DNA of 32,000 bases from Acaryochloris marina S15 (lineage in GTDB: Bacteria > Cyanobacteriota > Cyanobacteriia > Thermosynechococcales > Thermosynechococcaceae): positions 3,120,001-3,152,000 of the forward strand of contig NZ_CP064923.1 of the NCBI RefSeq assembly GCF_018336915.1. Reading direction: 5' to 3'. Under the pieces are notes generated by a model. The model was given only the letters and a program-made list of their open reading frames with translations. It did no database searches and had not been told where the DNA came from. This document shows positions 1 to 18,461 of this stretch, piece after piece (the first letter of the stretch is position 1; every line of letters starts with the position of its first letter). A program made the position numbers and the translations under genes.

Positions 1-1264
1 GCTCTCGCATATTGGTTTCATAGGCTAAGCCAATGACTCCCCTTGGAGTATCATTTGCAGGTGCTTTAAAGACACCTCTTGACTCATCTGTCCGACACCA
101 AATCCCCATCATATGCCCGCAGGGCGGCACCATAATCGGGCGTCCACCATTGCGAGGATTCGCGACTTTTATCCAGGGATAATAGATAGCCCCAAACATA
201 GAGCGGCGATTAAATTCATTCAGCCATTGAGCGACATGCTGGGGGCGCTGTTGTTCTGGGGGAACCGCAGTATTATCATTTTTGCCAATTTTGACAGGAG
301 GTGGATCAAGGACGGCCATCCGGTAAGCAGGGCCCGGAAAGGAATTCTCGCATAGGCTGACCATCATTTCCATGACTCCATGCACCTGATCCAGATCGAG
401 CAGGCCATTTTGATAGGCACGCATCAAGTCAGGACAGGCAATCATAGCCACTTCATCAATCTCGAATATGCCCTGCATGCCGGTGCGGTCATCCCGCTGC
501 CCCTGCAAATCACGAGGGAATCTTTCAGGCGTAGAGATTTGAGGCGGGGGGGTGATTTCAAAGGCTCCATTGGCTGGCCGACGAGATAGCGCTTGCCCAG
601 ACTGAGAGAGGTTCGCAACCGTGACGAATTCAGATTCTTCCAAAGCCGTGACGACATAGTCAGCAACAGCCGTGTCAACATCGGGATTCATGGTCAGGTA
701 TTCATACTTCTCTAGCTGTTCTCCACCCTGCCTAACGACAACGGTAAAGTATTCACCAGAGTTGAGAGGAGGCTCTTCATCGTCCTCCACTGGCTTGGGC
801 GCGCTCTCAAAGATAGCAACTTGAATCCGTGCATCTCCGGATGGAAGTGCGGGAGTATCCCCAGAGGCTTCTGGAAGCTTTAGACTAAATTTTAAGGAGG
901 GTCGGCCACTAAAAGTGGGTAATAAAGTTCCAGCTTCTTCTGGATCTGGTGCAGCAGATCCCGGTAATTGAGTGCCAATACTCGTCACCCAACAGCGTCC
1001 ACCGCCATTCAGAAACCAGCCTTGAACAGCGAAAGGTAAGTAGGCATCAAAATCAGTAAACCCATCCGAACCGGGTTTGGCAAAAAATTCCCGATATTGA
1101 TCCCAATTGGTAATCATCATCGGCTGAAACAATTCAGCATCTCCACGCACGTCTTCAGTAAACCCGATAAATCCGGCCACACTGAGACTGACACCTTCGA
1201 TCGGGCGACTTCCTCGGTCAACTTCTTCGACATAAACGCCAGGGGCAAAATAATCCAGGGCCAT
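1..1264 (-). CDS. Contractile tail sheath protein of an eCIS / phage-tail-like particle (first 421 codons; 3' end lies beyond the left window edge)
   Basis: Absent from the supplied ORF track because it runs off the edge. Manual minus-strand translation from ATG (complement of 1262-1264, GGAGGA 8 nt upstream) is stop-free down to position 2: MALDYFAPGVYVEEVDRGSRPIEGVSLSVAGFIGFTED...FLNGGGRCWVTSIG...FEIDEVAMIACPDLM...IYYPWIKVANPRNGGRPIMVPPCGHMMGIWCRTDESRGVFKAPANDTPRGV. The N-terminal APGVY.EE and C-terminal YYPW...PP.GH..G...R.D..RGV.KAPAN are hallmark contractile-sheath motifs (Afp2-4/Pvc2-4, phage sheath family). Track ORFs 113-355, 380-589 and 442-681 are shadow frames inside it. Confidence 0.9.
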   Translation of the reverse strand, partial: MALDYFAPGVYVEEVDRGSRPIEGVSLSVAGFIGFTEDVRGDAELFQPMMITNWDQYREFFAKPGSDGFTDFDAYLPFAVQGWFLNGGGRCWVTSIGTQLPGSAAPDPEEAGTLLPTFSGRPSLKFSLKLPEASGDTPALPSGDARIQVAIFESAPKPVEDDEEPPLNSGEYFTVVVRQGGEQLEKYEYLTMNPDVDTAVADYVVTALEESEFVTVANLSQSGQALSRRPANGAFEITPPPQISTPERFPRDLQGQRDDRTGMQGIFEIDEVAMIACPDLMRAYQNGLLDLDQVHGVMEMMVSLCENSFPGPAYRMAVLDPPPVKIGKNDNTAVPPEQQRPQHVAQWLNEFNRRSMFGAIYYPWIKVANPRNGGRPIMVPPCGHMMGIWCRTDESRGVFKAPANDTPRGVIGLAYETNMRE

Positions 1265-1304
1265 TGACTAGCTTCCTCCATTCGTTACGGGGTAAAGACT
1301 TGAA

Positions 1305-1865
1305 CTACTGCATAGGCGTGCTTTCACACCAATGATTCTTACTAGGTTTGGAAAGAGCAGGCGATCGTTCGGATACAAAAAATGGAATAGTGACGACTAC
1401 GTGTAGCGCCGGACGTAAGGGAGCACCTAACGCATGCCAGAGTTCGATTGGATTCATTAACCTTCCAGTGGAAATTCTCATCGGCAAACGGCCATAGCCT
1501 TGCAAGACTGGAGATAAATATTCAATCGGCAAGAATGAATGACGGGATAAGAGCATAAGGACTTCAGAAAGCAAATGTTGCTCTCCTAAGGCAGTAAAAT
1601 CCCAGACACTGACTAAGAAGGAAATATCAAACCACTTCAATGGCTTTGTCTGTTCTGCTTCTATATCCTGAATAGACTCTTCTTCCCCAGACAAATATTG
1701 TGGGGGGCAAGAATAGCTTTCACGAACGTCGTAACAGTAAAGGTTTACCCCAACTGCCATCTCCTGATCCACTTTGGGGTGGTTGAAAAATATCTGGTCC
1801 TTAGTGATGGAGGACGTTCCGTCAGACAGGATTTCTGCCAAGGTTTGAGTGACAGCAGGAATCAT
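1305..1865 (-). CDS. DUF4255 (Pvc16 N-terminal domain) protein, short form, eCIS Afp16/Pvc16-like
   Basis: 186-aa ORF ending 40 nt upstream of the sheath start on the same strand. N-terminus MIPAVTQTLAEILSDG...AVGVNLYCYDVRESY fits the DUF4255 pattern and parallels the N-terminus of the ORF at 4509. Confidence 0.8.
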   Translation of the reverse strand: MIPAVTQTLAEILSDGTSSITKDQIFFNHPKVDQEMAVGVNLYCYDVRESYSCPPQYLSGEEESIQDIEAEQTKPLKWFDISFLVSVWDFTALGEQHLLSEVLMLLSRHSFLPIEYLSPVLQGYGRLPMRISTGRLMNPIELWHALGAPLRPALHVVVTIPFFVSERSPALSKPSKNHWCESTPMQ

Positions 1866-2204
1866 AAATGAGCGCCATGAGGAAGCACAGCTCTACAGTA
1901 AGGAGTTAGTGAAGATATCGTTATTAGACTTTGGTCGGAATTATTGTTGTCCTTAAGCTACATCGGTTATTGCGACTTAAAACAAGTATTTTTATCCTTA
2001 ACTATTGAGAAATTTAAGTGAAACAAATTATTGATCGATGCCAGTTGACGAAACCCAAAAAACGAAACATTTCTTTACTAATCTTTGAGAAAAAGTGAGG
2101 CAAAACTGAAGCGTTTTTAGCTTTAGGATCATGCCAATATAAGTAAAATAAGCCCTTCAAGGAAGCTGTCTATACTATAAAGTCGAACAACCTATTGAAA
2201 TAAA

Positions 2205-2228
2205 AGAGATAGGTCATGACCTATCTCT
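2205..2228. promoter_or_regulatory. Perfect 24-bp palindrome AGAGATAGGTCA|TGACCTATCTCT in the divergent eCIS intergenic region. It is either an operator or a minus-strand intrinsic terminator.
   Basis: Checked by hand: the reverse complement is identical to the forward sequence. On the minus strand the stem is followed by TTTATTTCAATAGG (complement of 2190-2204), which is terminator-like. It also sits centrally (about 350-400 bp from each flanking start) in the spacer next to a LuxR-HTH regulator gene. Confidence 0.5.
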
Positions 2229-2246
2229 CATGCTGATCTAAAGGAG

Positions 2247-2274
2247 AGGATAAGGAGCAAAATTTATCCTTTTT
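2247..2274 (+). terminator. Weak plus-strand hairpin plus T-tract (AGGATAA-10 nt-TTATCCT-TTTT)
   Basis: 7-bp AT-rich stem (2247-2253 / 2264-2270), 10-nt loop, then TTTTGG. It lies 19 nt from the palindrome. The stem is weak, so confidence is low. Confidence 0.3.
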
Positions 2275-2615
2275 GGAAGAAAAATAAACTAATTTCAAAA
2301 GTCTATAACTGGATTTTCTATTCCCTGAAAGCTTTTGTATTCACCCGATACAAAAACTAGCTAGCCATATATCTAGACATTTAGCAAGAGAATTGAGCAA
2401 GTTTTTCAAGGACTTAAAAAAATCTAAATACCTATGAAAATATGAATAGAAAGTCGTAGGCTGAGTCATGAGTGCAAGTGGTTTGCTTATGAGATTTATT
2501 ACTACGTGTGAACAAATAATCTGGGAGACAACTCTCTCTAGTCTTGACTCAGTTTTGGAATTTTCAATCTTAAGAGAAGCGCACACTAGTTTTACAATTA
2601 TTCGTAAATTCTGGA

Positions 2616-3806
2616 GTGGAATTGGGGGCGACCATGCAGGTTAATCAACCCTTATCATTAAAAATTGAGTCTATTGGCCTAGGGGCTTTTTCAGATTGTC
2701 GCCAGTCCTTCTCAACACTGGATTTGAATCAGCATTGCCGGGGATTTTTAGATTTAATTGTTGATTATTTATCCCTCCCCAGCGCTTGGATTTTGCGACG
2801 TGACTTGGGTAATCAACTAAAGATTGAAATGGAGAAAGACGGTTCTAAACAGCCGGGTATACTCACTGCTAGTCACAATCGCACTTCTTTAAACGCTCTC
2901 CCATCCCCTTCGAACCTATGTTCTCAATTGGTTCTCGAATCCGCTACTGGTTTTGAGAAACCGGGATTACAGCACTGGGTTTACCAAGACTGGCAAGTCT
3001 ACAGTAGTTGTCTTTGTCGGCAACAGGGTCAGTACCTTTTATTTGCCTCAAGATCCCCTTTAACGATGCCAGAACAACATTGGGTAGACCGTCAAATCCT
3101 ATTAATCAGTGACTATTTTGATCTGCATTTAGCCTTTAGCCAACAGCAAGCTGCACTCTTAGCAAAACAGCAGCATCTTCATCAAACGACCCATCAACTG
3201 GGAACTCCATTGTCACTGATCACGCTTTACGCTGATATGTTGCGAGTCAAAACACCACCCGAAAGTGGTCAAGACTATCTAGTACCCTTGCAGCAAGCCG
3301 TTAAACAACTCCATCATCATCTCCAGGAGTTAGTGGATGACGAAGCAGAAGACAGCCCCATAATAGAGCAGTGTAATTTAAGAGAGTTGGTTGCTGAGAA
3401 TATACAGGCGCTTCAACCGCGCCTGCAAAGCCAGGAGATAGAAATCCACTGTCCACAAACGTCTGAGGTCATTGGGATAGACCGTTGGCAAATGCTTCAG
3501 GTTTTCGACAATCTGCTGAGTAATGCGCTGCATTTTAGTCCTCGTGGCAGCCAGATTACCCTCACTTGGCAGCGCTTCCAAACCGAAATTTTGATCGAGG
3601 TGAGAGATCAAGGACCAGGGTTATCACCGGAAGATTTGTGCTGTATGTTTTCCCCTTATTATTCACGACGAGATGGAGGGCGAGGATTAGGGCTAGCGAT
3701 CGCACAGCAAATCGTGTGTCGTCACCGGGGTCGACTGTGGGCGTCTAATTTGCCGGAGAGTGGTGCTCAGTTTTCGATTAGTTTGCCACAAGAGTCCAAG
3801 AATTAA
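2616..3806 (+). CDS. Soluble sensor histidine kinase (GAF-like N-terminal region + HisKA + HATPase_c)
   Basis: Start is GTG 2616 or ATG 2634. No hydrophobic TM segment. H-box HQLGTPLSLITLYADML; N-box LLSNALHFSP; G1 DQGPGL; G2 GGRGLGLAIAQQIV. The N-terminal ~190 aa has no recognisable kinase motif, and its assignment as a GAF-like sensor is inferred. Confidence 0.85.
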   Translation: MELGATMQVNQPLSLKIESIGLGAFSDCRQSFSTLDLNQHCRGFLDLIVDYLSLPSAWILRRDLGNQLKIEMEKDGSKQPGILTASHNRTSLNALPSPSNLCSQLVLESATGFEKPGLQHWVYQDWQVYSSCLCRQQGQYLLFASRSPLTMPEQHWVDRQILLISDYFDLHLAFSQQQAALLAKQQHLHQTTHQLGTPLSLITLYADMLRVKTPPESGQDYLVPLQQAVKQLHHHLQELVDDEAEDSPIIEQCNLRELVAENIQALQPRLQSQEIEIHCPQTSEVIGIDRWQMLQVFDNLLSNALHFSPRGSQITLTWQRFQTEILIEVRDQGPGLSPEDLCCMFSPYYSRRDGGRGLGLAIAQQIVCRHRGRLWASNLPESGAQFSISLPQESKN

Positions 3807-3820
3807 CGTTATCGGGGGAT

Positions 3821-4504
3821 TTGACCATGGGAAGCACTCAGCCACTATCCGTCGTTTTAGCAGATGATCAACCTACTTTTCGCCAGGGATTGCGAACGTT
3901 GCTGGGGTTTTACCAAGCCCAGGAAACGTTCCAATTTCACATTGTGGGTGAGGCAGCCTCAGCCGATCAGGCGATTAGTCTGGCGTTGGAACAGCATCCG
4001 ACTTTGCTGTTTCTGGATTTGGAACTACCAAAGGATGACGGCGTTGCCGCTCTGCAACACCTACGACAGCAGAACTACACAGGTAAGATTCTCGTCATTT
4101 CAGCCCATCAGGAAGATGAATGGGTGTTCCGTGCCATGCGAGCGGGGGCCGATGGGTATGTGTTTAAGTCTCAATTAGCCATGAATTTGCATCAAGCGAT
4201 TCAAACGGTGCTGAAGAATGAGGTTTTCCTACCGCCGAATGCGGCCACTGGTTTTTTCCGGTCTTTCCATTTCTATGAAGGCCGATCTGTTCAATCGGAA
4301 CAGACCCTCCATCTGACGGCCCGGGAAAAGCAGGTACTCCATTGGCTGGTTCAAGGGGCATCGAATCAAGCGATCGCAAATCACTTACACATTACGATCG
4401 CAACGGTGAAAGCCCACCTAACCGCTGTCTTTGAAAAGCTTGAGGTTAAAAGCCGCTCCCAGGCGATTGTCAAAGCCCTGAAGTTGGGTTTGGTGAACCC
4501 TTAA
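3821..4504 (+). CDS. NarL/FixJ-family response regulator (REC + LuxR-type HTH)
   Basis: The track start is TTG 3821. ATG 3827, preceded by GGGGGA, is more likely. REC motifs: VVLADDQ, LLFLDLELPKDDG (acceptor Asp region), ISAHQ. C-terminal HTH: LTAREKQVLHWLVQGASNQAIANHLHITIATVKAHL. The gene begins about 15-20 nt after the kinase stop. Confidence 0.9.
   Translation: MTMGSTQPLSVVLADDQPTFRQGLRTLLGFYQAQETFQFHIVGEAASADQAISLALEQHPTLLFLDLELPKDDGVAALQHLRQQNYTGKILVISAHQEDEWVFRAMRAGADGYVFKSQLAMNLHQAIQTVLKNEVFLPPNAATGFFRSFHFYEGRSVQSEQTLHLTAREKQVLHWLVQGASNQAIANHLHITIATVKAHLTAVFEKLEVKSRSQAIVKALKLGLVNP
4370..4377. repeat. HIP1 octamer GCGATCGC (one example of at least 11 copies in the window)
   Basis: Exact GCGATCGC copies located by eye at 3696, 4370, 4524, 12268, 15707, 17884, 19782, 22043, 22176, 25781 and 31708 (start coordinates). 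HIP1 over-representation is a known cyanobacterial genome signature. Confidence 0.9.
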
Positions 4505-4508
4505 AGCG

Positions 4509-5816
4509 ATGAGTAACTTTCTTGCGATCGCAACCGTAACTGCGGTTCTCCAACGCACCTTGCAAGCTGCCATTCAGGAAGATGTAGAAGGAGCCAGAGT
4601 CACCACCCTGCGTCCAGCCGACATCGGTAAGGGTACTCCGGTTTCTGGAGTGAATATTTACCTCTATCAAACATCCCTGAATACAGCCTGGAACAATACC
4701 GATCATCGGGGTCGGCATCGAAATAGCGATACGGCTAAACGATCTCGAACCGCCCTCGACCTGCACTATATGATCAGCGTCTATGGCAACGAAGTGGAGC
4801 TAGAACCCCAACGCTTATTGGGCAGTGTCATCCGCTCCCTTAGCGATGCTCAGGTAGTCCGAGAAGGGATGATTCAAGACACTCTTGCAGACTCCAACTA
4901 CGAATACTTAGCCGCCTCCGATTTGTGGCAGCAGGTGGAAGAGATTAACTTTATGCCCATGGATATGTCCTTGGAAGATCTATCCAAAGTCTGGTCGGTC
5001 TTCTTTCAAACCCCCTATGCCCTCTCCATTGCCTACCGTAGTACGGTCGTCATGATCGAAGGCCAGACCCCAGCTCAAAAAGCCCTGCCTGTAGCAAGTC
5101 GAGGCTTAGCTGTAGCCCCTTTTGCTGGCCAACCCCTGATCACAGAGATAGAGGCGATGACCGGAAAATTCGAGCCGATTGTGGCAAACTCCACGCTATT
5201 AATTCGGGGCAAGCGACTGCAGGGAAACCATACGGGCATCCGCATTGGGGCTGTCGATGTGGCCCCCTCTCAAGTGAGTGAAGGAGAACTGCTGTTGCCT
5301 TTAGTCCGCTTACCCTCCCACAGCCTGCGAGCTGGAGTCCAAAGTCTACAGGTTGTCCATCAATCCCAAACGCCAGCACCAACCCGACCCGGAGCTTGGC
5401 GTTCTGCTAGAGCTGCCTTGACTGCTCCCACCCACCAAGTCGGGATGGTCTCAAATGCATCTCCCTTTCTGTTGCGGCCAACAATTACCGACTTAGCCGT
5501 CACTACCCAAGGTCAAGAAGAAGAAGCTCGATCTGCTGCCATTCAAATCACAACAGACGTTACCATCGCTAGCCAGCAGCAGGTAACCCTGATTCTCAAT
5601 GAACGCACGGTTGAACATCCAGCTGCCTATCTGTTTGAAGCTCCTCATCGAACGACCGATACTCAATCCGTCACCTTTGAAGTGGAAGATGTGAAACCAG
5701 GAGAATATTTTGTCCGCATCCAAATCGACGGGGCAGAGAGTTCGTTGAAAATCGACCCAGAAGCAACCAGTCCAACATTTGGCAGCTTTGTGAGTCCCAC
5801 AGCCCAGATTATTTGA
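4509..5816 (+). CDS. DUF4255 (Pvc16_N) protein, long form with ~240-aa beta-rich C-terminal extension
   Basis: ATG lies 4 nt after the response-regulator stop. N-terminus MSNFLAIATVTAVLQRTLQAAI...GVNIYLYQTSLN is the DUF4255 pattern. The C-terminal half (ITEIEAMTG...LLIRGKRLQG...IRIGAVDV... and ...VTFEVEDVKPGEYFVRIQIDG) reads like two Ig/IPT-type beta domains; this is inference. Confidence 0.8.
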   Translation: MSNFLAIATVTAVLQRTLQAAIQEDVEGARVTTLRPADIGKGTPVSGVNIYLYQTSLNTAWNNTDHRGRHRNSDTAKRSRTALDLHYMISVYGNEVELEPQRLLGSVIRSLSDAQVVREGMIQDTLADSNYEYLAASDLWQQVEEINFMPMDMSLEDLSKVWSVFFQTPYALSIAYRSTVVMIEGQTPAQKALPVASRGLAVAPFAGQPLITEIEAMTGKFEPIVANSTLLIRGKRLQGNHTGIRIGAVDVAPSQVSEGELLLPLVRLPSHSLRAGVQSLQVVHQSQTPAPTRPGAWRSARAALTAPTHQVGMVSNASPFLLRPTITDLAVTTQGQEEEARSAAIQITTDVTIASQQQVTLILNERTVEHPAAYLFEAPHRTTDTQSVTFEVEDVKPGEYFVRIQIDGAESSLKIDPEATSPTFGSFVSPTAQII

Positions 5817-5825
5817 GGCAACGGT

Positions 5826-6074
5826 ATGAACATCTACCATATTCAAGTTCCCAACTTAGGCTATGTCCACAAAGCCTGGCAAGACGAGCAGCCTCGTTTT
5901 TGCACCCAACCGACACTAGCCAAACAGTGGAAGACCTTAGATAAAGCCTTAGACTTTGGCAACCAATCCCTCACCCCCAAGCTTAAAACCGCCTGGGAAT
6001 TGTGGCAGATGGCAGATGGCGAACTCACCCCCGTCATCCGTACCCATCATTCTGCAAATATCCCAACCCACTGA
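5826..6074 (+). CDS. Hypothetical small protein (82 aa) in the eCIS accessory operon
   Basis: ATG lies 9 nt after the DUF4255 stop, and its stop is 3-12 nt before the next ORF. I recognise no motif. The call rests on tight operon packing and normal composition. Confidence 0.5.
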   Translation: MNIYHIQVPNLGYVHKAWQDEQPRFCTQPTLAKQWKTLDKALDFGNQSLTPKLKTAWELWQMADGELTPVIRTHHSANIPTH

Positions 6075-6077
6075 GGT

Positions 6078-6317
6078 TTGCTGAGTATGACTAATGATTC
6101 CATAGAGCCTCGGATCGACTTAGAATCGGAAGCCCTGCAATACAAAAAACTGCACGAGTTAGGCAATTGTGCCCAAGCTGCAGGATTGATCGTGGGCCAT
6201 GGTCACCACCAGGGCAAGTATGAGATTTTACGACAAGGCCAAGCCCTAATGATGACACCCAAGGAAGCCCAAGCCTTTTTGCTTGAGCTATTGCAGTCGA
6301 TTGAGGCTTCGGAGTAA
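6078..6317 (+). CDS. Hypothetical small protein (79 aa from TTG 6078, or 76 aa from ATG 6087) in the eCIS accessory operon
   Basis: The stop TAA abuts the ATPase start (GTG 6318 / ATG 6324). No recognisable motif. Track ORF 6091-6357(-) is its antisense shadow. Confidence 0.5.
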   Translation: MLSMTNDSIEPRIDLESEALQYKKLHELGNCAQAAGLIVGHGHHQGKYEILRQGQALMMTPKEAQAFLLELLQSIEASE

Positions 6318-8318
6318 GTGCCCATGCAACAGGGGGATGCCGAATGGCAGGAGGCAAATTGGCTTTACTTCACCCAGGCTTTGCAACGGGTAAAGCAAGC
6401 CCTTCTTAATCAGGGGAAACAACTCGAATCTCAGCACCCATCCCCTGAGCCGATTGCTCCATTACCCCCATCGGAACTATCTCCTCCCTCTTATTTAGAG
6501 CAAATCAGTAAAGTCTTTGACCTAACCTCCTTTGCTCAGGATGTGCTGCTGCTCTGTATCGGCATGGAACTCGATCGAGGCTGGGAATCCATTTGTGCTC
6601 TAGCTCAAGGGAATCAAAGTCGGCCCTTCCCCACCCTAGGCTTAGCCCTAACTTGTTTTGCCGGATCGGATTGGAAAGGACTGCAGACCTTTCGGACCTT
6701 GCAAGAATGGCACTTAATTGAAGTAGGAGTGGGCACGGCTTTATCGACTCGGCCCCTATGCCTTGACCCCCATTTGTTACAGGTCCTGATGGGGGATAGC
6801 GAAATTGATCCGAGATTAAAGCCCTTGACCTTACCCTTTCCCTATCCCACGGAGTTGGTTCCTTCGCACCAAACGATTGCAGACCAAATGGTGCAAATCT
6901 GGTGGCGGGCTTTTCAACTGCAACAGTCGTTTCCCATCGTCCAACTTTGCGGACCTGATGTGGTCAGCCAGCAAGGAGTAACCCTGGCTGCTTGTAAACA
7001 AATAGGGTTGTGGCCGTTTGGACTAGCTGCAGAGACTTTACCTGTTGATCAACCTGGATTGCAGCTCATCCAAAAATTACTAGAACGAGAATGGCTATTG
7101 CATCATCGAGTGCTCGTCCTGCACTGTGATGGCTTGGACGACTCCTTGAAGGACCGAGATCGAGCATTAGCAAGTTTTATCGATCGTTTGGCTCTCCCTC
7201 TTATTATTTTGAACCGAGCCCGTCGCCCTCAGCATCTACGACTGATGGTCACCCATGAGGTTAGCTCGCCCAATCCCCAGGAACAACACCAAGTTTGGGA
7301 ACAGTCGTTGGGAGAATTCACAACGCAACTGAATGGTCAAGTAGAAGCATTAGTATCCCACTTCAATCTCAGTGCCACCAAAATCCAGGAGATCAGCCAT
7401 CAATTTCGACTGCAATCCCTAGCCAATAAAACCAGTGGGGAAACTCAGACTCCCTCCTCTCCAGGTGTCGTGTTGTGGCAAGCCTGTCGTCAACAGGCCC
7501 GGCCTCGACTCGATGAGCTAGCCCAGCGAATTGAATCCAGTAGTACTTGGGAAGATTTGGTTCTACCAGAAAAAGAGCAGCAAGTTCTAAAAGATATAGC
7601 AATCCATATCCGGCAGCGTCGGCAAGTGTATGAACAGTGGGGATTTCAAGGAAAAAGTCAGCGGGGGCTGGGGATTGCAGCCCTATTTGCTGGGGCCAGC
7701 GGTACGGGTAAGACTCTAGCAGCGGAGGTGCTAGCCAATACCCTGCAGCTAGATGTATATCGGATCGATCTGAGTTCGGTAGTGAGTAAATATATTGGCG
7801 AGACGGAGAAGAATTTGCGGCGGGTGTTTGACGCGGCGGAAGGGGGCGGCGTGATTCTTCTGTTTGACGAAGCCGATGCCCTCTTCGGCAAGCGATCGGA
7901 GGTAAAGGACAGTCATGATCGCCATGCCAATATTGAAGTGAGCTATCTATTGCAGCGGATGGAAGCGTATCGCGGTTTAGCGATCTTAACCACGAATCTT
8001 AAAGGTTCTCTCGATCAAGCGTTTCTACGTCGCATTCGGTTTATTGTTCAGTTCCCATTCCCAGATGCTAAGCAGCGAGCAGAGATTTGGCAGCATATTT
8101 TCCCGCAGCAAACTCCAACGAAGGGGTTAGATGCGAAAAAGCTGGCGAAGCTGAGTGTGTCGGGAGGGAATATTCGCAATATTGCTTTGAATGCAGCTTT
8201 CTTAGCAGCGGATGAGGGACAGCCTATAGGAATGCAGCACTTGTTGCAGGCGGCCCGTAGTGAGTATGTAAAGCTGGAGCGACCCCTGACTGATGCAGAG
8301 GTAAAAGGTTGGGTTTAG
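6318..8318 (+). CDS. AAA+ ATPase, eCIS Afp15/Pvc15-type (long non-ATPase N-region + single C-terminal AAA module)
   Basis: Walker A GASGTGKT, Walker B VILLFDEADALFGKR, then SYLLQRMEAY..LAILTTN and FLRRIRFIVQFPFPD (classic AAA second region of homology and lid). About 430 aa precede the ATPase module. Sits in the same operon as DUF4255. Confidence 0.9.
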   Translation: MPMQQGDAEWQEANWLYFTQALQRVKQALLNQGKQLESQHPSPEPIAPLPPSELSPPSYLEQISKVFDLTSFAQDVLLLCIGMELDRGWESICALAQGNQSRPFPTLGLALTCFAGSDWKGLQTFRTLQEWHLIEVGVGTALSTRPLCLDPHLLQVLMGDSEIDPRLKPLTLPFPYPTELVPSHQTIADQMVQIWWRAFQLQQSFPIVQLCGPDVVSQQGVTLAACKQIGLWPFGLAAETLPVDQPGLQLIQKLLEREWLLHHRVLVLHCDGLDDSLKDRDRALASFIDRLALPLIILNRARRPQHLRLMVTHEVSSPNPQEQHQVWEQSLGEFTTQLNGQVEALVSHFNLSATKIQEISHQFRLQSLANKTSGETQTPSSPGVVLWQACRQQARPRLDELAQRIESSSTWEDLVLPEKEQQVLKDIAIHIRQRRQVYEQWGFQGKSQRGLGIAALFAGASGTGKTLAAEVLANTLQLDVYRIDLSSVVSKYIGETEKNLRRVFDAAEGGGVILLFDEADALFGKRSEVKDSHDRHANIEVSYLLQRMEAYRGLAILTTNLKGSLDQAFLRRIRFIVQFPFPDAKQRAEIWQHIFPQQTPTKGLDAKKLAKLSVSGGNIRNIALNAAFLAADEGQPIGMQHLLQAARSEYVKLERPLTDAEVKGWV

Positions 8319-8603
8319 ATGAAAGACAGGTGATGGAAGCGTTACTCCCTAACCTGCCTAGGGCAGCAAAACTGAGGTATTTTGCCTACATAAGCCTCAT
8401 GATTTTCTAGCCTGAAACGATTTGAGTTATTGGGCATGCTAGTAGTATTCAGCTCGGTTTTCCAAAATGTACACCTACTGTCACCGGCAGAAGAAAAAAG
8501 CCCGTCATTTGGCTCAGAAAACCAAAATAGAGAAGCCCATCCAACAAGACTTAGGATAATCTCCAACCCGGCAAGAAAAATCCAATGAAGCTGGACTAGC
8601 AGA

Positions 8604-9008
8604 ATGGGCCAACCAACAACAAAAATAGTCATGGCCAATTGGCAAGCCAACAATCCACCAATTGGATTGTCAACGGATATGCTCGCTGAACTCAGCTACA
8701 GTGGCTTTGCCGCAGAAGAAGCAAAGAAACAACTCAATACTTATATTCAGCTCATTGATGCAGGCAATGCGGTTCAGCATCCGTCCGCTTTTATTGATGT
8801 CAAGCTTTACGTGGGCGGGCTAGATTTAGTCAGTATGTTTGTCGGCACTTACAGCGAGACAGGACGTAAGATCGACTCGATCATTGGTACAGGCGGCTCT
8901 AAAAAATCCAAACTGAGAAGTGTTGGTGGCACAAAAGGACATGGTTTTGTTGGTAACTATGTTCCCACCGTCGGCCAAGAAATCGCCCAAGATCTCCAAC
9001 AGCGATAG
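8604..9008 (+). CDS. Hypothetical protein (134 aa; start may be ATG 8631)
   Basis: ORF between the ATPase and the DUF4157 gene on the same strand. The sequence looks like a real protein (LSTDMLAELSYSGFAAEEAKKQLNTYIQLIDAGNAV...) but has no recognisable family motif. Confidence 0.45.
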   Translation: MGQPTTKIVMANWQANNPPIGLSTDMLAELSYSGFAAEEAKKQLNTYIQLIDAGNAVQHPSAFIDVKLYVGGLDLVSMFVGTYSETGRKIDSIIGTGGSKKSKLRSVGGTKGHGFVGNYVPTVGQEIAQDLQQR

Positions 9009-9137
9009 TGATCATATTTATGTTTGGGATAAGTAGCCCCTTAAGCTGGCAGAAAAATTAGCCCAATAGCGAGGTCCTGAGATTCATTTGAAGTGGGATA
9101 ATTCCCTTGACGATGGTATTGTACGGATTCTGGGGGA

Positions 9138-10763
9138 ATGTCAGTGCAGACGCATAAAAATCAGGTACAGCAAGGTAAAACAGACACTGTCCCTTCCTCT
9201 ACCCCACCCATTACGCAACCGACATCTCCATCACCCACTATTGAACCTAAGTCGAATGCTGAAGGTCTAGCAGAACATGCGGAACGGCTGAAAAAATTTC
9301 AAAGATTAGATTCAAATATGGTGCAGATGAGGCCCCCACGCTTAGGCCATAGCAATCCCATTCCTATTCAACCCAAACTGACGATTGGAGCACCCGGAGA
9401 TAAATATGAACAAGAGGCTGATCGCGTTGCCAAACGGGTCGTCACCCAAATTCATTCTCCCAAGAGCCTAGATACTCCATCATCCGCTCAACGCCAGGAT
9501 TTACCTGAACGAGATGAGCTAATGATGAAGCCTATTATTCAACGACACAACGGCCCTAAAGATGCGAATCCCAACCTAGAACAAGCCATTAACCAATCTA
9601 AAGGGGGTGGTCGTCCCCTGAATGATAAGATTCGCGGTCCAATGGAACAAGCTTTTGGAGCAAATTTTGGTAATGTGCGAGTCCATAACGATACAAAAGC
9701 CCATCAACTCAATGAATCTATCCAAGCGCGTGCCTTTACCACAGGCCAGGATCTCTTTTTTCGCCAAGGAGCCTACCAACCGGGCAACCGCGCAGGGCAA
9801 GAACTCCTAGCCCATGAGCTTACTCATGTCGTGCAGCAAAATGGGGTGTTGGTCAAGGAATCGAAATCCTCAAATGCTGATTTGCAAAAGTCAAATGCCG
9901 TTGTACAGGCACAATGGGTGGCAGGGAAAAAAGCTGAAACTTGGTATTGGGACCAAGTATTAGATGGTGTTACATGGTATATGGATTCATCTAATTCAAT
10001 GTGGTTTCAGATCACAAATGCTGAAGCAATAACGACTGGAACAGAGGAAGAATATACTACATTGCAGGGAAAGAAGAACAAGAAGAGTTGGATCGAGTGG
10101 AATGCTTTAAGTGTTGCACCTTTGGGTGGTGTTGGTGATCTTCTTTTTGAGTCAATGCAGTCGATGCAAAATGAGGATTTTGAATGGGGTTCAAATACTC
10201 TTGGAGGGCCGTTAGCGAAGAAACTGGCTACTCAACCGCCCAGAAAATATGGGAATAAAGCTACTCCCTTGGCTCTATGGCTATATAAAAAAGATGAGCC
10301 CGAACCTAAAGTATTTAACTGTTGGGAGGCAGTACTTATTGCAGCATTCAAAGCTGGTCTAATAGATAAAAATTATATTAAGAAAGCAATTGTTATTAAA
10401 GGTGGTGTTCCAGCTTTTGTCAAACCAATTATGGATGGCCCAAGTGGTAAGGCCGATGGCCCTCTGACTAAAGATAAGGTTGCAATTGCAAAGATCCCTT
10501 TTGCCATATCTACACCATTCGCAAAGGGAGTTGTAGTTGCTTTTGGTACTGATCCTGGCCACGTTGCGCTTGCTACAGGAAAACGAGTGTCAATAAAAAG
10601 TTCGGAAGTGGCTCAAGCGGTAGAGGCAGAAGAGGGAAATGAGATTTTGGAGTTGGATAGTGCGACGGAAGGTGTAAGCAAATCAACTATTGAGGAAACA
10701 ATGGCTCGAAATACTGCATATACCCGACAAGTTTGTTGGGGATCATTACCCAGTTCTTTCTAG
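9138..10763 (+). CDS. DUF4157 (HExxH, eCIS-associated) protein with a distinct C-terminal Cys/His module; candidate eCIS effector
   Basis: ATG preceded by GGGGGA. Disordered P/S/T/Q-rich first ~50 aa. DUF4157 signatures: LTIGAPGDKYEQEADRVA, RPLNDKIRGPMEQAFGANFGNVRVHNDTKA, AFTTGQDLFFRQGAYQP, LLAHELTHVVQQ (HELTH = 9813-9827). The C-terminal ~300 aa are unrelated to DUF4157 and contain KVFNCWEAVLIAAFKAG (Cys395, codon 10320-10322) and GTDPGHVALATGKR (His475, codon 10560-10562). Confidence 0.9.
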   Translation: MSVQTHKNQVQQGKTDTVPSSTPPITQPTSPSPTIEPKSNAEGLAEHAERLKKFQRLDSNMVQMRPPRLGHSNPIPIQPKLTIGAPGDKYEQEADRVAKRVVTQIHSPKSLDTPSSAQRQDLPERDELMMKPIIQRHNGPKDANPNLEQAINQSKGGGRPLNDKIRGPMEQAFGANFGNVRVHNDTKAHQLNESIQARAFTTGQDLFFRQGAYQPGNRAGQELLAHELTHVVQQNGVLVKESKSSNADLQKSNAVVQAQWVAGKKAETWYWDQVLDGVTWYMDSSNSMWFQITNAEAITTGTEEEYTTLQGKKNKKSWIEWNALSVAPLGGVGDLLFESMQSMQNEDFEWGSNTLGGPLAKKLATQPPRKYGNKATPLALWLYKKDEPEPKVFNCWEAVLIAAFKAGLIDKNYIKKAIVIKGGVPAFVKPIMDGPSGKADGPLTKDKVAIAKIPFAISTPFAKGVVVAFGTDPGHVALATGKRVSIKSSEVAQAVEAEEGNEILELDSATEGVSKSTIEETMARNTAYTRQVCWGSLPSSF

Positions 10764-10789: not shown

Positions 10790-11731
10790 TTATTTAGGGG
10801 CTACGTCGTGGAAGTGAGTGTAATCAATATATCGATGCCCATCTTGAGTCTGATGGAAAATATCGATGAATTTATGATTCCAAATAATGTCCAATGCCCC
10901 ATAGGTATGGCGAGCATGCAGAGATTGAGCCACTGTATCGTCAATCCCAGTCAGTGTGACAATTAGCGTCGCCTTGGTGCGCTCTAGCGATTCAGCAGTC
11001 GCGCCATAGAGTGGACTGGATTCATCAATCGGATGCATAACCGTCCAAGTCAGGGTAAAGGAAGGAGTACGAGGACGCAGCAAATTGAGATTATACAAAT
11101 GCCGCATGGCATCTCCCTCAGTGCTAACTTCATCCTGGAGAAAATAGAGATTAATTTCAGCTTCCAGAATTTGATTGCGGCGCTGATTGGCAGTACGAAA
11201 CATCAAAGTCGGTACGCCATTGTAAGGCGTAATCACCGCAACGTGGCTAAACAATACCCGAGTTGTTGGTCGAGAAAATCTCGCAAATGCCAAACCCGTA
11301 ATAAGGGCCACACTGAGAATACTCGTAAAAGCTTCTACCGTAACCACAAAATTGGCGTATGCCGTTGTCGGGTGCATGGCTCCATAGCCAATGGCTCCCA
11401 ACGTTTGCACACTGAAAAAGAACGCATCCCAAAAAGATCCTGGAGTCGCATTGGCAATACAATCTCCACCTGCCAAGAAAGCCAAAGCAAACAGAACATT
11501 AATGACCAAATAGCCGCCCACCAAAATCAGCAGAAATCCCAACCAGGGAATCGTTAACAGTAAATGATAGGGATCGCGCCAATAGGTGTACCAAACGCCC
11601 AGGCCAGAAATACTAAATTTGCCATCCTTAAACTTCAGATAGCTTTTTTGAGGCAAACTTTGGGCTAATTTTCGGCGGAGGGACTGACGGCGGCGGGAAT
11701 TCACAGGCGAACGCATAGAATGGACAATCAC
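10790..11731 (-). CDS. Inward-rectifier-type potassium channel (KirBac family)
   Basis: Two TM helices flank a pore loop with selectivity filter TLGAIGYG, followed by the Kir-type cytoplasmic beta domain (RPTTRVLFSHVAVI...PTLMFRTANQR...). Start is GTG 11731 (GTGA overlap with the upstream stop) or ATG 11716. Confidence 0.9.
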   Translation of the reverse strand: MIVHSMRSPVNSRRRQSLRRKLAQSLPQKSYLKFKDGKFSISGLGVWYTYWRDPYHLLLTIPWLGFLLILVGGYLVINVLFALAFLAGGDCIANATPGSFWDAFFFSVQTLGAIGYGAMHPTTAYANFVVTVEAFTSILSVALITGLAFARFSRPTTRVLFSHVAVITPYNGVPTLMFRTANQRRNQILEAEINLYFLQDEVSTEGDAMRHLYNLNLLRPRTPSFTLTWTVMHPIDESSPLYGATAESLERTKATLIVTLTGIDDTVAQSLHARHTYGALDIIWNHKFIDIFHQTQDGHRYIDYTHFHDVAPK

Positions 11732-17777: not shown

Positions 17778-18461
17778 TCAATCTGGAGGTGCTGCATCAG
17801 GATCAGGGGTTTGTTCTGGAATAGGGTTGGGTGGGACAGAGGTAGAGTCACAATCACACACCAAACTTTCTAGGAGTCCAGTTGCGATCGCAGCACCGGA
17901 TTCCACCGAAGGGGCAAACCGACTAACAAGCCGATCAATCTGGCCTGCGGTTCGGACTAACTTGACGCCATCAATCGTCATTTCAGCCAGAGGATACTTT
18001 TCCAGAAACTCCAACAGGGAAATCTGACCATCATCGCTCAAGGACTGAATCACCCCTGACCGAAGGGCTTGAATATTGGCCACTCGACCTGGAGTTCGAA
18101 AAATCTGGCCTGCTTGAAACAATGCATATTCCCCAGGCAATAGGTAGAGCAACCGATCGGCCAATCTAAGGCTAATTTTCACATCTTGAGCTAGAAACCG
18201 CCGGACGACGTTGGGATCTTGATCGGCAGCATTCAAGAAAAACTTGAGTTTAGAAGTGGCTTTACCTGTTTCAGCAAAAGTCTTGAGTTCTTTTACCGTT
18301 AGAGATTGACCAAATGGCCCATAGGTAAATTTAATCTTGGTAGCCCCCAGGGCAGTTTCGGCCTGAAGAACCAGGGCAGACAAGGTACAAATAGAACCCA
18401 GCCCCATCCAGATCACCATGTTCCGCAACCTTCGTAGACCTGTCATTGATGTTGATGCCAT
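17778..18461 (-). CDS. Secreted stand-alone DUF1400 protein (paralog A)
   Basis: N-terminal signal/TM. The DUF1400-like core (IKFTYGPFGQSLTVKELKTFAETGKATSKLKFFL...) matches the domain normally found N-terminal to cyanobacterial alpha/beta hydrolases. Ends in LVCDCDS (CDCD = 17847-17858) plus a Pro-rich tail. Confidence 0.75.
   Translation of the reverse strand: MASTSMTGLRRLRNMVIWMGLGSICTLSALVLQAETALGATKIKFTYGPFGQSLTVKELKTFAETGKATSKLKFFLNAADQDPNVVRRFLAQDVKISLRLADRLLYLLPGEYALFQAGQIFRTPGRVANIQALRSGVIQSLSDDGQISLLEFLEKYPLAEMTIDGVKLVRTAGQIDRLVSRFAPSVESGAAIATGLLESLVCDCDSTSVPPNPIPEQTPDPDAAPPD

Follow-up and report, generated by a model that had tools for sequence, protein, structure and literature searches.

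Afp of Serratia and PVC of Photorhabdus, two of the contractile injection systems (CIS) with which a locus of the cyanobacterium Acaryochloris marina S15 is compared here, are single operons of ~20-25 kb that include baseplate, spike, fibre and tape-measure genes. The A. marina locus occupies positions 1-10763 of a 32,000-nucleotide stretch of contig NZ_CP064923.1 (positions 3,120,001 to 3,152,000; the window), and its CIS markers, together with the absence of head genes, identify it on sequence grounds as a phage-tail-like CIS locus and not a prophage. To our knowledge, the thylakoid-anchored tCIS of Anabaena sp. PCC 7120 is the sole characterised cyanobacterial CIS. It is encoded by the contiguous cluster all3313-all3327 (PDB 7B5H), its cap is made of two Pvc16-type proteins, Cis16A and Cis16B, and its DUF4157 effector genes diverge from the structural operon; neither a two-component system nor Cis15 is mentioned in the paper on it (Weiss et al. 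2022). The cytoplasmic CIS of Streptomyces coelicolor and S. venezuelae (CIS-Sc, clade IId; PDB 8BKY/8BL4 and 9GTP/9GTS) is also one contiguous cluster, sco4242-4260, with a baseplate, and its effectors are the transmembrane (TM) proteins Sco4256-4258. The Streptomyces clusters have several tube paralogues and no conventional tape measure or tail fibre (Casu et al. 2023). A survey of extracellular CIS (eCIS) that accepted a locus when 10 or more core genes lay close to one another reported the pair Afp8 and Afp11 from 98.7% of the loci and GerE beside 25.8% of them, with a kinase upstream in 9% of those, and described DUF4157 as an N-terminal domain of effectors that is highly specific to eCIS loci (Geller 2021). 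Loading of payloads is ascribed to Pvc15 in published work.

We consider it likely that window positions 1-10763 form one module, with sheath/tube, cap, loading ATPase, regulator and effector, of a CIS lineage widespread in cyanobacteria, the other modules of which lie elsewhere on the chromosome. A leftward operon carries cis16S, the sheath gene, three tube genes and two small paralogues, and a rightward operon carries a histidine kinase, a LuxR regulator, cis16L, s82, s76 and an AAA+ ATPase, with s134 and the gene for a DUF4157 effector behind it. Other chromosomal sites (AM1_6403-6406 of A. marina MBIC11017 and others) would hold the baseplate wedge and the spike/tape-measure modules, all belonging to one regulon.

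Five gene types of eCIS loci had been named in an earlier note written from the sequence alone, namely a contractile sheath, a short and a long DUF4255 protein, an Afp15-type AAA+ ATPase and a DUF4157 protein, and all five were recovered at the positions given in Table 1 with profile E-values far beyond chance. The sheath gene was missing from the list of open reading frames (ORFs), as that note had remarked; ORFs running off an end are not listed. In a PDB sequence search, the sheath fragment matched the Streptomyces CIS sheath 8BKY over aa 4-416 (E 4e-53), and it matched phrog_23, 'tail sheath', with an E-value of 4e-21. A Pfam scan of the fragment gave no match because the Phage_sheath_1 and Phage_sheath_1C domains fall outside the window; the full sheath of 566 aa on Logan contig L001 bears both. 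The short DUF4255 protein, cis16S, is encoded by the leading gene of the leftward structural operon, 40 bp 5' of the sheath, and matched PF14065 (Pvc16_N) with E 1e-23 and PDB 9GTS chain 0A, a 'Pvc16 N-terminal domain-containing protein', with E 6.5e-15. The second DUF4255 call held as well: cis16L matched PF14065 over aa 9-196 (E 4e-45), and its C-terminal extension of ~240 aa, with a weak TIG match (E 0.006, aa 222-288), may be Ig-like. The ATPase consists of an N-terminal winged-helix region (WHD domain PF22977, E 1e-11) and one C-terminal AAA module (AAA, E 5.5e-25) with the Walker A motif GASGTGKT and the Walker B motif LLFDEAD. It matched phrog_10401 with E 5e-76, and its PDB matches were to generic p97/Cdc48 D2 only. 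The 541-aa ORF is a DUF4157 protein, as had been called, with eCIS_core (PF13699) at aa 160-236 (9615-9845; E 6e-34) including a HELTH motif.

The genes are arranged in two divergent units, and the shared 750-bp spacer described in the earlier note was found between them; taking the conserved ATG at 2634 as the start of the kinase gene lengthens it to 768 bp. The gaps from kinase to regulator, cis16L, s82, s76 and ATPase are 14, 4, 9, 12 and 0 bp, the stop codon of s76 abutting the ATPase start, so the genes from kinase to ATPase make up one tightly packed unit. The sensor system attributed to the locus was borne out by the Pfam domains of a histidine kinase (HATPase_c, E 4e-23; HisKA, E 2e-6) and a LuxR-type response regulator (Response_reg, E 2e-22; GerE, E 1e-19). 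Separated from cis16L by 4 bp, this pair forms the start of the cis16L-to-ATPase operon, whereas the regulators in the survey adjoin eCIS loci (Geller 2021).

Among solved systems, the Streptomyces CIS gave the best match for both the sheath and cis16S, which is a statement about sequence matches and not about phylogeny. The Acaryochloris locus resembles it in having several tube paralogues, but the Acaryochloris genes are dispersed, the effector is a DUF4157 protein rather than a TM protein, a kinase/LuxR pair is embedded among the genes, and the host is a cyanobacterium. The Anabaena tCIS shares with it the cyanobacterial host, the two Pvc16-type genes and the divergent orientation of the DUF4157 effector genes, but is contiguous where the Acaryochloris system is dispersed, and the Anabaena anchoring parts (Cis13 TM domain/fibre, Cis12 extension and Cis19 crown) are absent at the Acaryochloris locus. 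Since the Anabaena sheath, All3325, matches the Acaryochloris sheath weakly and over a short C-terminal piece (E 2.7e-11), the two belong to different lineages. Shared with Afp and PVC are the sheath, the gp19 tube, the Afp16/Pvc16 cap and the Afp15/Pvc15 AAA+ ATPase, and in all of them effectors end the ATPase unit; Pvc2 and Afp2 match the Acaryochloris sheath weakly (E 1e-8 to 1e-9 over ~55 aa), and the gene order differs. Unlike 98.7% of the surveyed eCIS loci, the Acaryochloris cluster has no Afp8/Afp11-type genes.

A genome scan with the full sheath found a 98% identical protein in A. marina MBIC11017 (NC_009925.1, 259643-281340), where the locus corresponds approximately to AM1_0262-0278, and cis16S is residue-for-residue identical on ten Logan contigs. 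Contig L001 is 98.5% identical to window 1-9844 and reaches 8.7 kb past the left edge of the window. There it carries the rest of the sheath gene, three gp19 (PF06841) tube genes and two small paralogous genes for proteins of 139 and 110 aa with no family match, followed by a gene for a 729-aa protein, a convergent Nif11 gene and an animal-haem-peroxidase/HemolysinCabind gene. PDB sequence searches with the first tube protein, the 139-aa protein and the N-terminal part of the DUF4157 protein returned nothing useful. Beyond 10.8 kb, the right part of the window contains genes for a Kir-like channel, ureidoglycolate lyase, an EamA transporter, an M23 peptidase, XdhC and DUF1400, and further on folP, a STAS protein, a DnaJ-TPR protein, a CHAD protein and pstSCA, which are housekeeping genes only. 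Pfam scans covered every ORF with a minimum length of 80-100 aa in the window and the left extension, and neither the 8.7 kb to the left nor the 21 kb to the right yielded a tape-measure, hub, tube-initiator, baseplate (gp25, baseplate-J) or spike (VgrG, PAAR) gene. The MBIC11017 locus likewise has no adjoining baseplate or spike genes, and no fibre gene is present at the Acaryochloris locus. Of the genes that the earlier note expected to the left of the sheath, the tube genes were therefore present, whereas gp25, baseplate-J, VgrG and the tape measure were missing and unrelated genes stood in their place.

The same arrangement recurs outside the genus. As relatives we took the 80 best of 387 cyanobacterial genome matches to the sheath, whose sheaths are 76-85% identical, and mapped the locus proteins onto them by tblastn; layout was counted in the 51 loci with enough flank and the presence of Cis5 in 55 loci. 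The cis16L gene diverges from the sheath in 36 of the 51, homologues of s76 lie between cis16L and the ATPase in 31, and s82 homologues were found in five. A homologous LuxR regulator is located directly upstream of cis16L in 21 of these loci, in 14 of them with the kinase too. In 22 of 55 relatives the sheath operon ends after the small paralogues, with no Cis5-like gp19 gene downstream. Longer operons continue with Cis5, an ORF of 2042-2368 aa, CIS_tube, VgrG and DUF4280 (PAAR-like). Altericista has this continuation after its tube genes (Cis5, a 2078-aa ORF, CIS_tube, VgrG, DUF4280) and, divergent from the sheath, an operon Nif11-gp25-Cis11-Cis12 (Tail_P2_I) of which Nif11 is the first gene. 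In Symplocastrum, the sheath operon is truncated as in Acaryochloris, and a gp25-Cis11-Cis12 operon, which continues with genes for a 466-aa protein, a WD40 protein and a 945-aa protein, lies on a different contig. The truncated or split layout in many relatives indicates that dispersed modules are recurrent in this lineage and are neither a peculiarity of Acaryochloris nor an assembly artefact.

Published RNA-seq data of A. marina MU13 and MBIC11017 compared low-irradiance far-red light with higher-irradiance white light (PMC11633204). Induced in low far-red were AM1_0269-0274, including the sheath gene AM1_0271, as well as AM1_0278, the LuxR regulator gene AM1_0267 (in MU13) and a kinase gene; AM1_0265, which is s82 by gene order, and the AAA ATPase gene AM1_0263 were up in MBIC11017 (PMC11633204). 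The MU13 CIS genes are among the most strongly light-regulated, and the authors of that study make no comment on them; the MU13 kinase is assigned there to a different MBIC11017 gene, AM1_2240 (PMC11633204). The same condition induced AM1_6406, annotated as 'baseplate assembly protein GpW' (K06903), and AM1_6403, a WD-repeat protein gene, with AM1_6404 and AM1_6405 changing in the same direction in MBIC11017 (PMC11633204). AM1_3478-3485 were also among the induced genes, as were the 'phage tail collar' genes AM1_3686-3690 (PMC11633204), which may be unrelated to this system. As annotated, the run AM1_6403-6406 comprises four genes starting with gp25 and resembles the start of the Symplocastrum wedge operon. 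Hence, from this likeness and the co-induction we infer that AM1_6403-6406 is the baseplate wedge of the CIS, encoded ~6,000 gene numbers away and co-regulated with the module in the window.

Several points weigh against a dispersed but complete system. The assignment of AM1_6403-6406 draws on published annotation and co-expression, and the proposed control of the CIS genes by the embedded two-component system draws on position and co-expression. Homology searches with Altericista Cis5 and Cis11 yielded no Acaryochloris-labelled protein in the top 120 clusters; none of ten unlabelled clusters from these searches was from Acaryochloris, and three unlabelled Logan matches were traced to unrelated samples. 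A tblastn search of the PLSDB plasmids with Cis11 found no Acaryochloris plasmid. No tape measure or spike was identified for A. marina in searches that covered this locus and, elsewhere, Cis5/Cis11 homologues. The cap role of cis16L comes from its Pfam domain, and a PDB search gave no sequence match to any solved cap protein. Finally, no immunity gene follows the effector gene, whose stop codon is 26 bp from the convergent Kir-like K+ channel gene.

If the module in the window does belong to a dispersed system, the embedded two-component system would turn on the scattered genes when it senses a signal related to light or stress. The baseplate encoded elsewhere would nucleate the polymerisation of tube and sheath, and the two Pvc16_N proteins would cap them, in line with the roles of Cis16A and Cis16B in Anabaena. 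The AAA+ ATPase would help in the loading of DUF4157-tagged effectors in the manner of Pvc15, and contraction of the sheath would expel tube, spike and effector. From sequence comparison, the particle may act outside the cell, in the cytoplasm (as in the closest solved relative) or anchored to a membrane. More tentatively, the kinase/LuxR pair could act as master switch for a CIS regulon that is dispersed over the genome and turned on in dim far-red light in this chlorophyll-d cyanobacterium, which would make the CIS a light-gated injection or lysis machine. The regulon would then consist of the module described here, the wedge AM1_6403-6406, and spike and fibre modules elsewhere; we regard this combined proposal as possible, though on balance doubtful.

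The strongest competing explanation is that the locus is a decaying remnant which has lost baseplate, spike and tape measure and no longer makes particles. No gene of these three kinds was found within ~30 kb, no Acaryochloris orthologue of Cis5 or Cis11 was among the top matches, and s134 resembles a gene fragment. Selection on the genes argues otherwise. dN/dS was calculated between the window-type strain, MBIC11017 and an Acaryochloris metagenome-assembled genome (MAG) at dS of 0.5-1.8, and was 0.012-0.015 for the sheath (0.012 vs MBIC11017, at dS of ~0.5-0.65), 0-0.03 for the tube genes, 0.02-0.035 for the response regulator, ~0.05 for cis16L, 0.08 for the ATPase, 0.13-0.20 for cis16S, 0.11-0.17 for the kinase, 0.12-0.14 for s82 and 0.11-0.21 for s76. 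The CIS genes are under strong purifying selection, and these low values speak strongly against decay; no core ORF is broken in any of the three Acaryochloris lineages, and dN/dS of the core genes is 0.01-0.08. In addition, the genes are strongly light-regulated in MU13 and co-induced with the annotated GpW baseplate cluster, and at least one of the 22 relatives with the same truncated operon has a wedge operon on another contig. A remnant is therefore unlikely.

A still less probable alternative is that the tail genes simply adjoin a separate system, such as one for anti-phage defence, to which the ATPase, the small genes and the DUF4157 protein belong. The best NCBIfam match of the ATPase is indeed the anti-phage ATPase IteA (E 2e-30), but with 106 bits the match falls short of the curated cut-off of 510, and it spans the generic AAA module only. 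The genes cis16L, s76 and ATPase also travel together beside the sheath in most relatives, and DUF4157 is highly specific to eCIS loci.

The earlier note had read positions 1-10763 as one end of an eCIS locus; on that view, they would belong to a contiguous canonical operon whose remaining genes adjoin the window on its left. Afp and PVC are usually laid out in this way, and in some relatives the tube genes are indeed followed by Cis5, a giant ORF, CIS_tube, VgrG and a PAAR-like gene. However, the leftward operon stops after the two small genes both in MBIC11017 and in six near-identical Logan contigs, where the genes for the kinase-like/PBP-like protein, the convergent Nif11 and the peroxidase come next, which refutes such a continuation for the 8.7 kb to the left and makes this reading very hard to maintain. 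Because baseplate, spike and tape measure are lacking on either side, the window holds most of a short module rather than the end of a 20-30 kb canonical operon. That the locus is the tail module of an integrated myovirus is equally improbable: sheath and gp19 tube are common to myoviruses and the sheath matches phrog_23, but the Pfam scans of the 32-kb window and the 8.7 kb to its left found no capsid, portal, terminase, integrase or lysis gene, the eCIS-specific markers Pvc16_N (twice), Afp15-like ATPase and DUF4157 are present, and several strains have the locus in the same chromosomal context flanked by housekeeping genes, in keeping with the earlier note's choice of an eCIS over a prophage tail.

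Table 1. Features of the A. marina S15 CIS locus and of its left extension. Positions are those of the window unless contig L001 is named.
Feature	Position	Strand	Evidence or remark
Sheath gene cis2, N-terminal 421 codons	1..1264 (coding part 2-1264)	-	PDB 8BKY, phrog_23; runs past the left window edge
cis16S, short Pvc16_N (DUF4255) protein, predicted cap/terminator, 186 aa	1305..1865	-	PF14065
Divergent intergenic spacer, 750-768 bp	1866..2633		Gene coordinates, three-lineage alignment
Soluble histidine kinase	2634..3806 (alternative GTG start 2616)	+	HisKA, HATPase_c
LuxR/GerE response regulator	3821..4504	+	Response_reg, GerE
cis16L, long Pvc16_N (DUF4255) protein, predicted cap, 435 aa	4509..5816	+	PF14065
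s82, conserved small gene, 82 aa	5826..6074	+	Conservation; no family match
s76, conserved small gene, 76 aa	6087..6317	+	Called on Logan contigs, translation
cis15, Afp15-like AAA+ ATPase	6318..8318	+	AAA, PF22977, phrog_10401
s134, ORF of 134 aa	8604..9008	+	Homology to part of a 546-aa protein in L036
DUF4157/eCIS_core protein, predicted polymorphic effector, 541 aa	9138..10763	+	PF13699
729-aa protein	L001 14912-17101	+	Cys-rich Zn-ribbon N-terminus, kinase-like region (weak Pkinase match), TM segment, PBP_like_2
Nif11-family gene, 69 aa	L001 17153-17362	-	~5.5 kb left of the window

The DUF4157 protein is, as judged from its domain architecture, a polymorphic effector. It is made up of a low-complexity N-terminus, eCIS_core and a strain-specific C-terminus (9846-10760), which in turn consists of a beta-rich module and a Cys-His module (aa 364-541; 10227-10760). 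The DNA identity between the window and L001 ends at 9844 and returns at 10812. Three strain types (window, L001-type and MBIC11017) share the N-terminal part up to HELTHVVQQ and then have unrelated C-termini of ~305, 270 and 430 residues, respectively. The same pattern is known from polymorphic toxin systems with DUF4157 toxins, in which the N-terminal part is conserved through HExxH and the C-terminal modules are swapped; unlike those systems, the Acaryochloris effector has no adjoining immunity gene, and its Cys-His module has no Pfam family.

For the C-terminus of the window strain, an exhaustive HMMER search found 121 cluster representatives, whereas a word-indexed search gave two. The HMMER matches define two separable modules at approximately residues 10-95 and 130-300 of the C-terminal part, and eCIS_core was present on 30 of 53 scanned homologues of these modules. 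Invariant in the Cys-His module are N-C-W-E, H(VAL) and E-L(D). An AF2 model of this module from a 20-sequence alignment had a pLDDT of 86.7 and placed the Cys at the start of a helix and the His at the start of a strand; for the whole C-terminus, a 3-sequence alignment gave a pLDDT of 34 and no usable model. The module had no Pfam or PDB sequence match, and a Foldseek search against PDB found no significant match, the best being NlpC/P60 proteins (E 0.25, probability 0.35-0.51). The Cys-His module is a candidate cysteine-dependent toxin domain.

The ORF s134, which precedes the effector gene, is 74% identical to the C-terminal 125 aa (L036 7944-8318) of a 546-aa protein encoded on contig L036 of a Synechococcus MAG, where the next gene encodes an eCIS_core protein. 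It had no family match and is absent from MBIC11017 and the IP29b MAG of Acaryochloris, and its homology suggests either an orphan effector cassette or a remnant. Contig L036 also carries a RelA_SpoT-domain gene (4358-5401), small-alarmone-synthetase-like, which comes directly after the sheath operon, here truncated too, and precedes the effector genes; its product may be a toxin associated with the CIS. Profile searches found no family match for s82.

The N-terminal ~170 aa of the kinase, its sensor region, had no Pfam match. The sensor half (window 2634-3150 region) is 62-75% identical to its MBIC11017 counterpart and the catalytic half ~90-95%, and the response regulator is 98% identical between the two strains. 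A fast-changing sensor half beside a conserved regulator hints at sensor replacement or rapid divergence. The divergent spacer presumably holds both promoters and the sites for the regulator, and several of its blocks are conserved in an alignment of three Acaryochloris lineages (window, MBIC11017 and the IP29b MAG). A perfect palindrome with an 11-bp stem at 2204-2229 (GAGAGATAGGTCATGACCTATCTC) is strain-specific and is not kept in MBIC11017 or IP29b. A scan of promoter and terminator consensus sequences was uninformative, promoter-like sites being fewer than in shuffled sequence. A 58-aa ORF called in the spacer on Logan contigs was rejected as a gene; its dN/dS is 0.94, and it is probably non-coding. 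Rfam and tRNA scans of the window were empty.

Some neighbouring genes deserve mention on their own. The gene for the 729-aa kinase-like/PBP-like protein lies 3' of the sheath operon in all Acaryochloris lineages and has a dN/dS of 0.16; a homologue with 38% identity is found near cis16L in Coleofasciculus (L065), and any link to the CIS is tentative. The Nif11 gene is AM1_0278 by gene order and is induced along with the sheath operon. A Nif11 gene stands beside loci of this CIS lineage in 15 of 51 relatives (L015, L018, L019, L026, L046, L049, L051, L053, L057-59, L066 and L081 are named). Nif11 domains are leader peptides of ribosomally synthesised and post-translationally modified peptides (RiPPs), and a role in CIS would therefore be unexpected. 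Next to it, four independent Logan assemblies (L002-L005) stop at one base, locus position 18227, inside the peroxidase/HemolysinCabind gene, which suggests a repeat, probably of RTX type, that breaks short-read assemblies.

On the other side of the locus, the gene convergent with the effector gene encodes a homologue of Kir-type inward-rectifier K+ channels (IRK_C, Ion_trans_2; 10790-11731, minus strand), and its DNA is 94% identical to L001 vs 98.5% for the CIS genes. In relatives with longer operons, the 2042-2368-aa ORF between Cis5 and CIS_tube (L018 14959-21195, L012 14997-21125, L013 14603-21709 and L046 15154-21321) has no Pfam domain and occupies the position expected of a tape measure; it is absent from the Acaryochloris locus. 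Known eCIS tape measures are far shorter.

GerE/LuxR regulators with or without a kinase by eCIS loci and DUF4157 effectors (Geller 2021) and the two-protein cap (Anabaena) were already known; beyond the literature consulted go the split modules of this lineage, the link to light-dependent expression, and a strain-variable effector with an unclassified Cys-His domain. The Acaryochloris locus represents a lineage different from that of the Anabaena tCIS and very widespread in cyanobacteria. With its modules scattered, surveys that need ~10 core genes per cluster could miss this lineage or call its loci incomplete. If the kinase/LuxR pair does act as the switch of a dispersed regulon, a common and uncharacterised cyanobacterial CIS lineage would have been under-counted by cluster-based surveys owing to its non-contiguous genes. 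With the strain-variable DUF4157 effector, the candidate CIS toxins grow by a Cys-His domain family that is so far uncharacterised. The so far unremarked response in the A. marina RNA-seq data, in which scattered modules react jointly to the light regime, offers a tractable handle on the purpose of CIS in cyanobacteria.

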